This document shows positions 7,854 to 15,648 of a stretch of 64,000 bases of DNA, piece after piece (position 1 is the stretch's first letter; each line of letters starts with the position of its first letter). This DNA is from an uncultured Rivularia sp. (lineage in GTDB: Bacteria > Cyanobacteriota > Cyanobacteriia > Cyanobacteriales > Nostocaceae), in contig OY762007.1 of the NCBI GenBank assembly GCA_963665115.1, positions 768,001-832,000 on the forward strand, read 5' to 3'. The notes below the pieces were generated by a model that saw only the letters and a list, made by a program, of their open reading frames with translations, did not search any database and had not been told where the DNA came from. A program made the position numbers and the translations under genes.

Positions 7854-8973
7854 CTATTCCCCATTCTCCGTTACTTGGTTTTCCTGTCGCAGATAGGCTT
7901 GAATGAAGGAATCTAGTTCTCCATCCATCACGTCTGTTATGGCTGTTGTTTCGATGTTGGTACGCAAGTCTTTTACCATCTGGTAAGGATGGAATACATA
8001 GTTACGTATTTGATTTCCCCAACTTGCTTCCACCATATCACCGCGAATTTCAGCGACTTCTTGGGCGTGTTGTTCTTGAGCCACAACCAACAGCTTTGCT
8101 TTGAGACGAGCAAGGGCTTTTTCTTTGTTTTGCAGTTGCGATCGCTCTTCGGTACATCGCACTGCAATACTTGTGGGCAAGTGAACAATTCGGACTGCCG
8201 TTTCTACTTTGTTGACGTTTTGTCCGCCTTTACCGCCTGCCCTGGATGTAGTAATTTCTAAATCCTTATCGGGAATATCCAATTCTACATTGCCGTCTAT
8301 CTCAGGCATGACTTCTACGCCAGCAAAACTGGTTTGTCGCTTACCGTTAGCGTTGAAAGGAGAAATTCTAACTAACCGATGGGTACCCATTTCCGAACGC
8401 AAATACCCGTAGGCATAGCGCCCGGTAATTTCTAGAGTTACCGATTTTATACCAGCTTCATCTCCATCCGATTTATCGCTTATTGCAACCTTATAACCGT
8501 GACTTTCTCCCCAGCGCGTATACATTCGCAGCATCATTTCCGCCCAATCTTGAGCGTCAGTACCGCCAGCACCGGCTGTTATTGTTAGAGAAGCGCCTTT
8601 GCTATCGTAAGGGCCAGAAAGTAACTGCTGTAACTCCCACTGGTCGAGTTCGCGGCTGAGACTTGTAACGTTAGATACAGCTTCATTCAGTAGCGACTCG
8701 TCGGTATCGGACTCTAAAAGTTCGACAACTGCGCGGGTATCTTCTAAGCTAGAATGCCAGTTATGATACTGTTGCAGATAAGATTTAAGTTCGTTAAGCT
8801 CTTGCAGGGTATCTTGAGCTTGATTTTGATCTTCCCAAAATTCCGGCTGTGCTGCAATTTGTTCTAAATCTTGAATTTTAGCTTTGAGTGCGGGTAAGTC
8901 AAAGATAGTCCTGAGTTTTACCCAGGCGATTAGATAACGTTTCGATTTCCCGTTTGATCTCTAGAACTTCCAT
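7854..8973 (-). CDS. prfB: peptide chain release factor 2, programmed +1 frameshift (join 8902..8973 and 7854..8900; ~372 aa)
   Basis: [24 protein letters not shown] then CTT-TGA-C, continuing +1 as DLPALKA; GAGG, RISPF and GGQ motifs intact. Confidence 0.97.
8898..8912 (-). promoter_or_regulatory. prfB +1 frameshift cassette (AGGAC TAT CTT TGA C)
   Basis: Canonical CUU-UGA-C slippery site with an AGG SD-like element upstream. Confidence 0.93.
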
Positions 8974-9117: not shown

Positions 9118-9187
9118 GGTGCGTGACGGCAATTTCAATTTATCGGGCTATGCTTTGATAATTTATCGTAGCCGTCACGCACCCTAC
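9118..9187 (-). repeat. GTAG-type REP hairpin (GTAG-GGTGCGTGACGGC...GCCGTCACGCACC); further copies at 10363-10431 and 11592-11654
   Basis: 13-bp perfect inverted repeat, ~40-nt AT-rich loop, 5' GTAG on the minus strand; three copies bracket the RF2 paralogs. Confidence 0.8.
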
Positions 9188-10264
9188 AATTTGAGATAAG
9201 CTTTGGTGAACAAATCAAGGTTTCCTTTCATCACTTCTTCAATGTCAGTTGTTTCTACGTTGGTACGTAAATCTTTAACTTTTTGGTAAGGATGAAAGAT
9301 GTATTCGCGGATTGGGTTATTATCTACATTTTTGGATGATGGTTTTTTGACATCTGTAAGTGCAACACCTTGAGCTTGCATTAATGAAAATAGCTTACTT
9401 TTAACAACAGCTAAGGCTTTTTCCTTATTAAGCAATTGAGAACGTTTATCTCTAGAAGTGAAGGAAATACCAGTAGGAATATGAGTTACTTTCACTAATA
9501 CGCTTCTGCGGTTACTGTTAGGGTTGCTAGGCTGTACATAAAATTCCAAATCCTGTATCGGAATTTCAAATACCGATTCATCTATAATCGGCGTAACTTC
9601 CACCTTTGCAAAACTAGTTTTAATAGCAGCCTTTTTACAAAAAGGTGAAATTCGTTTCAGTTGATGAATTCCTTGCTCGGATTTGAGATATCCATAAGCA
9701 TACTTACCGAAAATTTCTAAAGTCACATAGTTAAAGCCAACCAATTCTCCTATCGACTCGTCCAAAAACCGGAGTTTGCAGTCATGGCGATCGCACCAAT
9801 CATCGTACATTTGTAGCAACATATGTACCCAATCTTGGGAATCTAGATCGTTATTACCAGCAGTAATAGTAATAAAAGCTCCTTTATCATCAAAAGGCTG
9901 ATTCAGCAGGCTGATGATTTCAACGTGTTTGAGTTGGCTGCTTAAGAAATCATAGTTAGTTTGCAATTCTTGCTGTAACTGCTCGTCAGCTTCAGATTCC
10001 AAAAGTTCTAAAGCTGCTTTGGCATTATTCAAACAAGTTCGCAATTCTTGATATTTTTCTTGTTCGTAGAATATCAAATAGGTTAATTCTTGAAGGGAGT
10101 TATGAGCAATTACGGTATCTTGCCAAAATTCAGGTTTTATAAGTAGCTTTTCTAGATCCCTTACTCTTGCACTTATTTTATGGATGTCAAAGACAGTGTT
10201 GAGGTTGGCTGAGGAACTTAGATAATGTTTCGATTTCGCGTTTTACTTTTGATAGTGCCAGCAT
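9184..10264 (-). CDS. RF2 paralog lacking GGQ, +1 frameshift at CTT-TGA-C (join 10190..10264 and 9184..10188; ~359 aa)
   Basis: [25 protein letters not shown], then +1 frame DIHKISARVRDLEK..PEFWQD runs open into the 9184..10077 ORF; RISPF present; GGQ loop replaced by VQPSNPNSNRRS. Confidence 0.85.
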
Positions 10265-10433
10265 ATTTTTCTCTTGTTGAGACACGTTAAATGAATTGTA
10301 GTACAAAAATGGGGATTGGTGATAGGGAATTGGGCATTGGGGATTGGGGATTAATAACAGGTGGTGCGTGACGGCAATTTCAATTTATTTCGTTATGTTT
10401 GATAATTTATTAGAGCCGTCACACACCCTACAA

Positions 10434-11514
10434 TTAGAAAGCTTGTTTGAGATACGCTTTGGTAAACAAATCTAAGTTTCCTTTCATCACTTCTTCAATG
10501 TCAGTTGTTTCTACGTCGGTACGTAAATCTTTAACTTTTTGGTAAGGATGAAAGATATATTCGCGGATTGGGTTATTATCTACATTTTTGGATGATGGTT
10601 TTTTGACATCTGTAAGTGCAACACCTTGAGCTTGCATTAATGAAAATAGCTTGCTTTTAACAACAGCTAAGGCTTTTTCCTTATTTTGCAATTGGGAACG
10701 TTTTTCTTTAGAAGTAAAGGAAATACCAGTAGGTATATGTGACATGGTTGCCCAAAAGTATCTTCCGTATGGACACACTTCACTGATTACTTCTAAATCT
10801 TTCATTGGAATCTCAAAATCCATCGACTCATCCACAATCGGGATAACTTCTACATCTGCAAAGCTGGTTTGAATTCTAGAATCTTCACTAAATGGTGAAA
10901 TTTGTCTTAATTGATGAATTCCTTGCTCGGATTTGAGATATCCATAAGCATACTTACCGAAAATTTCTAAAGTCACATAGTTAAAGCCACCCATTTCTCC
11001 TATCGACTCATCCACAAGCCGCGATTTGCAGTCATGGCTTTCACTCCAATGACAATACATCCGTAGCAGCATTTGCACCCAGCATTGAGAATCTGCATCA
11101 TTATTAACAGCAGTAATAGTAATGAAAGCTCCTTTATCATCAAAAGGCTGATTCAGAAGATTAAGAATCTCAACGTGTTTGAGTTCGTTGCTTAAGAAAT
11201 TGAAGTTGACTAGTAATTCTTGTTCTAACTGCTCGTCTGCTTCTGACTCCAGAAGTTCTAAAGCTGCTTGGATATTACCTAAACGAGTTTGCCATTCTTG
11301 ATATTGTTCTTGCTCGCAGAATATCAAATAGATTAATTCTTGAAGGGAGTTATGAGCAATTACGGTATTTTGCCAAAATTCAGGTTTAATAAGTAGCTTT
11401 TCTATATCCCGAATTTTTGTATTTAGTTGATGGATGCTAAAGACAGTCTTGAGGTTGGTTAAGGAACTTAGATAATGTTTCGATTTCGCGTTTTATTCCC
11501 AATATTTCTAACAT
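10434..11514 (-). CDS. second RF2 paralog lacking GGQ, +1 frameshift at CTT-TAG-C (join 11440..11514 and 10434..11438; ~359 aa)
   Basis: [25 protein letters not shown](TAG), then +1 frame SIHQLNTKIRDIEK..PEFWQN runs open into the 10434..11327 ORF; QISPF present; GGQ loop replaced by SEVCPYGRYFW. Confidence 0.83.
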
Positions 11515-11808
11515 GATTTTTCCTCGTTAGGTCACATTACATAAATAGTAGTACAAAAATGGGGATTGGGGATGGGGAATTAATAAAAGATGATGCGTGA
11601 CGGCAATTTCAATTTATTTCGTTATGTTTGATAATTAATCGTAGCCGTCACACAACGGCAATAACGCGGGAGGAATATCCACACCGCGTTTTGCCTCCCC
11701 TACAAATAAATTACTTTTTCAGTGACAGGAAAAGGGGATAGGGGGATGAGGAGAAATATTTAAAATTCTTAACTCATAACTCCTCACTCCTAACTCCTAA
11801 CTAATTTC

Positions 11809-12543
11809 TTAGTCTCTTCCGCCGCCGCTAATGGCAATCAATAGACGTAAGATGAAGATGAATAAGTTGATGTAGGTAAGGTACATCGATAAAGCTGCGG
11901 GTAAATATTCGTCATCTTTATAGGTACGGGGTAGTACGTAGAAGTCAACTACCGCAGCACCAACAAACAACAATACACCTAAGCCAGAAATACCGATTTC
12001 CAACCATCCAGGGGTATATACGCCAAATAAGGAAAGTCCTAATTGAATAACTAAAACTGCAACTAAGGCTATTACACCCAAACGAACAGTTTTTGCTAAA
12101 GCCATACCGTCAGTATCAGAAAGGTTAGAACCAATCTGACGAGCGGCGATAAAGGTTATTCCACAACCAAGGGCGGCGATACCAATACCCTCAATGCCTA
12201 CTCCTTGGGTTCTCAACGCTACAAATACTAATCCGCTAAGGGTGTAGCCAGATAAGAGACTGTAGGCTGCTAACAGTGGTAATGCAACTTGCTTATTACC
12301 TTTAGAAGCTACATTTTGAGCAACAAAAAACAAAATTAGTTCTACGATTATCGCGCCAATCAAGGTAGGGAAAAATAGTTCGGGATGATTGCGGATTACT
12401 CCTAACCCACCATAAGTTCCCAAAGCAGTAAGTACTAATCCACCACCTACGTAAGGAAGTGCATTAGCAATTACGTTTGGCCCTACCAGTGCTTGATTTT
12501 TAGCGTCGCGAATGGCGTTTCGGAAATTGCTCGTATTACTCAT
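11809..12543 (-). CDS. Bax inhibitor-1 (BI-1/YccA) family membrane protein
   Basis: ~7 TM helices; C-terminal 'AALSMYLTYINLFIFILRLL'. Confidence 0.88.
   Translation of the reverse strand: MSNTSNFRNAIRDAKNQALVGPNVIANALPYVGGGLVLTALGTYGGLGVIRNHPELFFPTLIGAIIVELILFFVAQNVASKGNKQVALPLLAAYSLLSGYTLSGLVFVALRTQGVGIEGIGIAALGCGITFIAARQIGSNLSDTDGMALAKTVRLGVIALVAVLVIQLGLSLFGVYTPGWLEIGISGLGVLLFVGAAVVDFYVLPRTYKDDEYLPAALSMYLTYINLFIFILRLLIAISGGGRD

Positions 12544-13984: not shown

Positions 13985-15648
<1,664 letters not shown>

Follow-up and report, generated by a model that had tools for sequence, protein, structure and literature searches.

Introduction

Autoregulation of prfB depends on RF2 reading UGA, and UAG is read by RF1 alone. 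The accessible text of a survey of NCBI-annotated prfB genes reports no TAG among 8,164 shift sites (PMC12421855), and it is chiefly on this absence of UAG that the comparative case for the frameshift serving RF2 feedback rests. According to the accessible parts of two further reports, an E. coli prfB window containing UAG does shift, and RF1 mutants show an approximately 10-fold drop in termination there (PMC2680264), an assay in which UAGA or UAGU was combined with an intact Shine-Dalgarno (SD) sequence, compared with UAG-C and no SD sequence at the site described here; of 32 P-site codons tried with UAG, CUU-U performed best (PMC5009743).

Here we describe an RF2-like gene with UAG at a prfB-type shift site. 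It lies in a 64,000-nucleotide stretch of DNA (the window) from an uncultured Rivularia sp. A preliminary description of this DNA had proposed that the site, together with a UGA site in a second paralog, forms a paired sensor of RF1 and RF2 activity.

Results

Two RF2 paralogs precede prfB

The window belongs to the genome of a filamentous cyanobacterium (G000), with Rivularia and Calothrix as the sources of the nearest named proteins. The minus strand carries, in order, a Bax inhibitor-1-like gene (Bax1-I; 11809..12543, PF01027), paralog 3 (ATG 11514), paralog 2 (ATG 10264), prfB (ATG 8973) and ybeY. Synteny identifies the Bax1-I gene as a conserved upstream neighbour, and the TAG copy (paralog 3) is the distal of the two RF2 paralogs upstream of prfB. 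Canonical prfB (7854..8973, minus strand) has GGQ, SPF and a CTT TGA C site at 8904-8898, and paralog 2 (9184..10264, minus strand) is a GGQ-less RF2 copy with CTT TGA C at 10192-10186. In the TAG paralog, also on the minus strand, an SD-like GAGGA (11521..11525) precedes a 25-codon frame-0 ORF that runs from ATG to CTT and specifies RF2 helix 1 (11440..11514). A 334-codon +1 frame (10434..11438) follows, with PCRF and RF-1 domains and an SPF motif (10890..10898); a shortened hypervariable loop (10740..10790) takes the place of the GGQ loop.

A dispersed hairpin repeat of about 70 nt with 25 hits in the genome flanks every RF2 copy of the window. Its copies lie upstream of the TAG paralog (11557..11654), between the two paralogs (10328..10425, 89% identical to the upstream copy) and between paralog 2 and prfB (9118..9183, with 27-nt inverted arms). 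The repeat is a likely substrate for duplications and deletions. A promoter and terminator scan yielded no excess over shuffled sequences. G000 encodes a single prfA with an open frame as well as tRNA-Leu(GAG). Elsewhere in the window, a phosphoglucomutase-like gene (13985-15642) consists of two overlapping ORFs, reflecting either a frameshift or a sequencing error.

Paralog 3 contains a CUU UAG C shift site

All three RF2 copies begin with an ORF of 24-25 codons that ends in CTT plus a stop codon, and the remainder of each gene is in the +1 frame. The cassettes read CAG GAC TAT CTT TGA C in prfB (CTT at 8904-8902), CAA CAC TGT CTT TGA C in paralog 2 (CTT at 10192-10190) and CAA GAC TGT CTT TAG C in paralog 3. 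The latter (11436..11451, minus strand) comprises a decayed SD sequence, CTT (11442-11440) as part of the slippery CUU-U, TAG (11439-11437), which is codon 26 of the ORF starting at ATG 11514, and a 3' C (11436). The end given earlier, 11450, is one base short of the cassette. A +1 shift would produce a predicted RF2-like protein of 359 aa, and the predicted junction peptide spanning the shift is FLNQPQDCLSIHQLNTK. Readthrough in the TAG frame was rejected as a route past the site, the next frame-0 stop being reached after 17 codons, and the third reading frame closes after 4 codons. Transcriptional slippage was likewise rejected, as the run contains only three T residues.

The TGT CTT TAG C reading, with its slippery CUU-U and 3' C, was confirmed in the sequence and in contigs. 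Those of runs X1 (depth 72) and X2 (depth 206) cover 11339-11491 with 0 differences, this evidence consisting of assembled contigs rather than raw reads from runs that may be the window's own sample. A second contig beside them, with 16 differences, corresponds to the TGA version in paralog 2. A further 13 copies, found in other genomes or on metagenome contigs, also have TAG-C at the homologous site. The contigs and these copies contradict sequencing error as the source of TAG. The 7-mer CTTTAGC is itself frequent (2762 occurrences in the genome); what goes beyond chance is its homologous position and conservation, not the 7-mer. The two-base change from GA to AG that had been pointed out is real but requires no special event, given that TAA occupies the site in 6 relatives.

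Translation might instead begin downstream of the site, at TTG 11327, which opens a 297-aa ORF that is also the database gene call. This codon is TTG in 11, TTA in 8 and TCG in one of 20 copies, and predicted anti-SD pairing is -0.5 kcal/mol for TTG 11327 compared to -5.9 kcal/mol for ATG 11514. Moreover, 7 of the 11 TAG copies have no ATG, GTG or TTG within 50 codons past the site. A gene start at TTG 11327, the alternative raised in the preliminary description, is contradicted by these missing starts, the variability of the codon and the lack of an SD sequence. The upstream ATG is conserved in all 101 paralogs examined, 20 from the genus clade and 81 others.

The paralogs resemble RF2 and lack GGQ

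The +1 parts of the two paralogs are 77% identical to one another and about 45% identical to prfB. Both carry PCRF and RF-1 domains, above the Pfam cut-offs in the TAG paralog. Against TIGR00020 (cut-off 370 bits) the +1 parts of the paralogs score 283 and 271 bits, the lower value being that of the TAG copy, compared to 479 bits for that of prfB. A structural model of the TAG paralog folds like RF2 (mean pLDDT 75.8, pTM 0.59), and its best Foldseek hits are RF2. A feature absent from the preliminary description is that GGQ is missing from both paralogs of the window, which have a shorter, unrelated loop instead. As GGQ is established, according to the accessible text of PMC5897788, as a requirement for peptide release, neither paralog is predicted to be capable of acting as a release factor.

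SPF is kept in the window's paralogs and altered in 3 of the 11 TAG copies. The helix-5 tip (GGT), V202 and R213, which we take to be codon-reading residues, are changed in all genus-clade paralogs and invariant in canonical RF2, and A-site binding is therefore uncertain. Residue 213 is I in all genus-clade copies except for single V and F variants; by its title, work of Korkmaz and Sanyal from 2017 reportedly links R213I to broader codon reading. R213 is also named in PMC8131318. Motifs of domains 2 and 4 remain conserved in the paralogs. A search for PrfH was negative for both its model (TIGR03072, 30.8 bits versus a cut-off of 166.65) and an rtcB neighbour, the neighbours being Bax1-I, prfB and ybeY.

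The former GGQ loop (10740-10790 in the window, and its homologs) falls into at least five allele classes that are shuffled across TAG and TGA copies. Between G000 and G003, the TAG copies share 97-100% identity in the first 540 nt but 47% in the loop segment. Two paralogs, L101 (G308) and L122 (G243), have a GGQ-containing loop inside an otherwise GGQ-less clade. No protein change was found that sets TAG copies apart from TGA copies.

UAG occurs in paralogs and not in canonical prfB

We searched 27 genus, 389 family and 401 order genomes, 20 chosen genomes and a metagenome collection (4 loci). Of 127 paralogs with a 5' match, those of G314 and G249 were dropped because the 5' end was lost. 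Tabulation of the shift-site stop in orthologs, which the preliminary description had proposed, showed CTT-T-stop in each of the remaining 125, with 105 TGA, 14 TAG, 6 TAA and 0 sense codons, a tally rather than a census as loci were fetched chiefly from genomes with a second match. All 169 canonical prfB sites read CTT TGA C, such that TAG was found in 14 of 125 paralogs and 0 of 169 canonical genes, and any non-TGA stop in 20 of 125 and 0 of 169, respectively. Of the 125 paralogs, 124 keep the 3' C and 123 are without GGQ. The absence of sense codons indicates that a stop is needed at the site; two caveats are that G-to-A mutations are the more frequent and that residue 26, the first of the +1 frame, precedes a helix and may favour D, N or S, a confounder of the stop test.

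The paralogs form one cyanobacterial family, mostly from Nostocaceae and spread over several cyanobacterial families. In a FastTree phylogeny of 96 paralogs and 33 RF2 sequences they constitute one side of a branch with support of 99, and the stop changed at least 7 times. Twelve TAG copies, one of them broken, fall in the genus clade and two in a Nostoc-like clade. A single origin of all TAG copies was rejected (p-AU 3e-33), giving at least two origins of TAG. For the TAG copies of the genus clade, the test is compatible with monophyly and with its absence (p-AU 0.26), and hence with either direction of change within that clade.

Among the 27 genus genomes, 3 have TAG plus TGA copies, 6 have TAG only, 4 have TGA only, 3 have broken or remnant copies (G001, G010 and G016, with 3' remnants lacking the site in G001 and G010) and 11 have no match, one of these 11 being incomplete to the point of lacking prfB. 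Three of the TAG-only loci are fully bracketed by Bax1-I and prfB and three are at contig ends; three TGA-only loci are fully bracketed. In each of the three two-copy genomes a TAG and a TGA copy occur in the same order, with near-identical 3' ends in two of them, and all three pairs can derive from one old duplication. The TAG and TGA lineages have each been maintained among copies with only 65-80% identity. The flanking repeats and near-identical 3' ends point to recombination, which weakens the tree-based tests because it violates the single tree of the null models.

Several other observations were made in these loci. In the Nostoc-like clade (e.g. L094, L097, L100, L103-L105), 24-25 copies have an in-frame TGA, mostly TGA CT, at about codon 166 of the +1 frame. 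Past this shared TGA the frame is conserved, with a dN/dS of 0.24-0.31. In relatives the position is occupied by Tyr, Cys, Trp, Phe or Leu codons, and in both TAG copies of the clade by TGG; this pattern suggests readthrough as a second gate. In canonical prfB of G003 (L034), a short G-run insertion upstream of the site puts the first ORF out of frame; misassembly is the probable cause. Three separate contigs of G718 (L194, L196 and L201) each carry a canonical-type prfB with a UGA site.

The shift site is probably used

Judging from substitution patterns, the paralog family is under purifying selection. Pooled pairwise dN/dS of eight TAG-group copies, calculated from pairs that are not independent, was 0.31 in the first ORF, 0.45 from the site to the TTG and 0.16-0.27 beyond, compared to 0.03-0.2 for canonical RF2; in most segments the paralog values are 3-10 times those of prfB. 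The four silent or uncoded bases of the cassette are invariant in all 11 TAG copies, compared to 5.4 neutral changes expected from four-fold sites (P 0.005; 0.017 without the T of the stop). Across 101 paralogs about 49 cassette changes were expected and 0 synonymous or uncoded changes were seen; two sites are otherwise changed (TAT for TGT and A for C). Because the silent cassette bases are invariant, the shift site is probably used in the TAG copies. This invariance and the CTT-T-stop in all 125 paralogs bear out the earlier proposal that a prfB-type +1 shift site has been retained.

The earlier observation that the SD-like stimulator has decayed in both paralogs also held: the internal SD sequence 3 nt upstream is absent from the TAG copy, and pairing with the genome's anti-SD is -0.5 kcal/mol for the TAG copy and -0.3 kcal/mol for paralog 2 versus -4.0 kcal/mol for prfB. 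The accompanying caveat that shifting may be inefficient is real but softer than first put, as SD-less prfB sites are known to shift. The accessible text of PMC10798248 gives about 7% shifting for SD-less prfB sites of Flavobacterium and states that most cyanobacteria are without a strong SD sequence; that of bioRxiv 2026.01.08.698412 reports that in Pseudomonas SD mutation sharply lowered RF2 and SD loss strongly reduced shifting. The shift level of the TAG copy is expected to be low. In our collection 6 of 146 canonical prfB sites are without an SD sequence; CAGCAC, which provides none, precedes CTT TGA C in the essential prfB of L049, L116 and four other loci.

UAG predicts RF1 gating, whether or not it was selected

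UAG is an RF1 codon, as the preliminary description had it, and the accessible text of PMC2680264 describes an E. coli prfB window with UAG as a reporter of RF1 activity and calls UAGC weak. By analogy, RF1 gating of the TAG copy is a sound prediction, selected or not. TAG-C (114) and TGA-C (62) are the rarest four-base stops among 3470 long ORFs of the genome, 876 of which end in UAG.

Selection for UAG itself is another matter. TAA was not seen among the 12 genus-clade TAG copies. In a two-state model based on third positions of K, E and Q codons, 1.9 G-to-A changes were expected on the TAG tree and 0 were seen, a test of little power (P 0.16, rising to 0.39-0.57 when partial constraint on the +1-frame Ser-to-Asn change is allowed for). 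This tree-based null removed an apparent signal of selection on TAG from a crude count, in which 0 of 14 neutral G-containing columns were all G. Outside the genus clade about 10.6 neutral stop changes were expected and about 4-5 were seen; stop identity is therefore relaxed, not free. These data are in line with the site requiring a slow stop, be it TAG-C or TGA-C. With both types of copy in only 3 of the 27 genus genomes and the invariance of TAG not significant, the paired RF1/RF2 sensor is unsupported.

An amber suppressor was rejected as the reason for UAG. ARAGORN called a CUA anticodon in a tRNA-like gene, and orthologs of this gene have CUA in G000 and G003 only, with other anticodons in the TAG-copy genomes G005, G021 and G041. 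The gene is the first of a tandem tRNA-like pair (L170:8126-8274, which is G000 C1:203125-203273, minus strand), and over the genus its anticodon varies (CUA, CAT, CTT, GGA, TGA, GAG) and its arms are conserved. At C1:2710034-2711354, no fewer than 11 additional tRNA genes of G000 are clustered, an arrangement that presumably resembles the stress-induced trn operon of Nostocales.

Discussion

We lean slightly towards the reading that paralog 3 is a GGQ-less RF2 copy whose UAG slippery site permits a low-level shift that would rise when RF1 is slow, UAG being tolerated and not purpose-built. The 25-codon ORF ends in CUU UAG C and the remainder is in the +1 frame. A ribosome pausing at this stop would very probably allow tRNA-Leu to slip from CUU to UUU, generating the 359-aa product, and the yield would probably be only a few percent because the SD sequence is gone. 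It is quite likely, by analogy with the E. coli window, that RF1 rather than RF2 would compete with the slip. In prfB, UGA would be obligatory because the product reads UGA, and a GGQ-less product would close no loop, such that any slow stop could serve; loss of GGQ, by breaking the feedback loop, is the likely reason that the stop of the paralogs became free to change. We consider this account, with at least two passages from TGA (likely through TAA) to TAG, reasonably plausible. More speculatively, and with some doubt on our part, an RF2 mimic might occupy the A site, whether the ribosome is terminating or stalled, and release no peptide, with the cell rationing it; a mimic is favoured because the motifs of domains 2 and 4 are conserved and catalysis is lost. 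Alternatively, the product may bind RNA as PrfB3 does, or act as a decoy, as the shuffled loop would suggest.

The principal competing interpretation is that UAG was selected so that the gene senses RF1 status, TAG and TGA copies providing two channels, possibly to counter termination-slowing toxins, antibiotics or phages. The two independent origins of TAG are in keeping with this, as are TAG in all 12 genus-clade copies, the pairing of TAG with TGA in 3 of 3 intact two-copy genomes, the TGG of both Nostoc-clade TAG copies where relatives carry the internal TGA, the usage of UAG as a stop in this genome and the shuffled loop alleles, which resemble those of conflict proteins; selection on stop identity would also give persistent TAG and TGA lineages. 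However, the invariance of TAG was not significant, the three pairs can share one duplication, genomes with a single copy or no copy outnumber those with both types 24 to 3, no protein change splits TAG from TGA copies and PADLOC gave no match. We therefore regard selection for UAG as rather unlikely. A fuller proposal likewise seems unlikely to us: in filamentous cyanobacteria, dead RF2 copies would have become termination-stress sensors (UGA for RF2 failure and UAG for RF1), with two separate rounds of selection for UAG, and their product, which carries the shuffled loop, would bind the ribosome as an effector or decoy countering agents that attack termination. Were the sensor reading true, prfB-type programmed frameshifting would have its first natural RF1-gated example.

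It is improbable that the cassette is only a fixed throttle that keeps the dose of a dead, possibly harmful RF2 copy low and constant, with release factor levels varying too little to matter. The lost SD sequence, the tolerance of every stop and the second in-frame TGA of many Nostoc-clade copies would suit such a fixed dose, and the accessible text of PMC12421855 describes excess RF2 as toxic in B. subtilis; yet the termination-weakening 3' C, present in all sites except one, is expected if release-factor competition matters, and a shifty stop inherently competes with RF1. Decay of the paralogs into pseudogenes, leaving the site as a relic, is very improbable. Copies in G001, G010, G016, G314, G249 and other genomes are broken or truncated, dN/dS is elevated over that of prfB and 11 genus genomes have no match, but dN/dS is well under 1 in both frames, frames are intact at 66-91% identity, silent cassette bases are invariant and one family extends across several cyanobacterial families. 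Finally, it is scarcely credible that TAG is a sequencing error or that the TTG start makes the site irrelevant: the 297-aa database ORF is countered by contigs with 0 differences, the 13 other TAG copies, the variable TTG codon and its negligible SD pairing relative to the ATG.

Returning to the reading that UAG is tolerated, the GGQ-less family is a natural control in which catalysis is gone, the slippery site and 3' C remain, and the stop wanders. This pattern supports the RF2-feedback reading of prfB and sets it apart from plain dose control. The TAG copy is a natural candidate for an RF1-gated frameshift, and G000 carries three near-matched cassettes that are directly comparable: UGA with an SD sequence, UGA without one and UAG without one. 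A selected GGQ-less RF2 copy has no described role. Literature searches, mainly of open-access papers, returned no description of a GGQ-less RF2 paralog or of a natural CUU UAG site, and by these searches a conserved UAG at a site of the prfB type, in an RF2 copy that is non-catalytic yet under selection, is new as a variant. Many paralogs are labelled 'PCRF domain-containing protein' in the database and were thus likely outside the survey of 8,164 sites.

As far as the accessible texts describe them, several known systems share part of this arrangement. Phage T4 gene 60 bypassing (PMC5009743) is also natural recoding with UAG in the A site, but involves a 50-nt hop, and its stop is said not to compete for termination at normal factor levels. 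A readthrough proposal for hemA-prfA (PMC2680264) likewise has a weak UAG-C couple expression to RF1 activity; unlike the present site, it is a hypothesis of readthrough and reinitiation that control RF1 itself, with no frameshift. Plant chloroplast PrfB3 (PMC5897788) resembles the paralogs in being derived from RF2, having lost GGQ and being retained with another role, whereas it has also lost SPF and stabilises petB mRNA, and the paralogs mostly keep SPF and the shift site. The engineered prfB UAG window used as an RF1 assay (the system of Poole et al., PMC2680264) has the same CUU UAG and the same opposition of shifting to RF1 termination, in a laboratory construct with the E. coli SD sequence and UAGA or UAGU; the TAG copy is natural, SD-less, UAG-C and conserved. 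The autoregulatory +1 frameshift of prfB, as in E. coli RF2 (PMC12421855, PMC10798248), is alike in its first ORF of about 25 codons, T-CTT-T, stop at codon 26, 3' C and RF2-derived +1 product, reflecting common ancestry. The TAG copy differs from it in having UAG, no SD sequence and no GGQ, hence an open feedback loop, and in being an accessory gene in tandem with an intact prfB.
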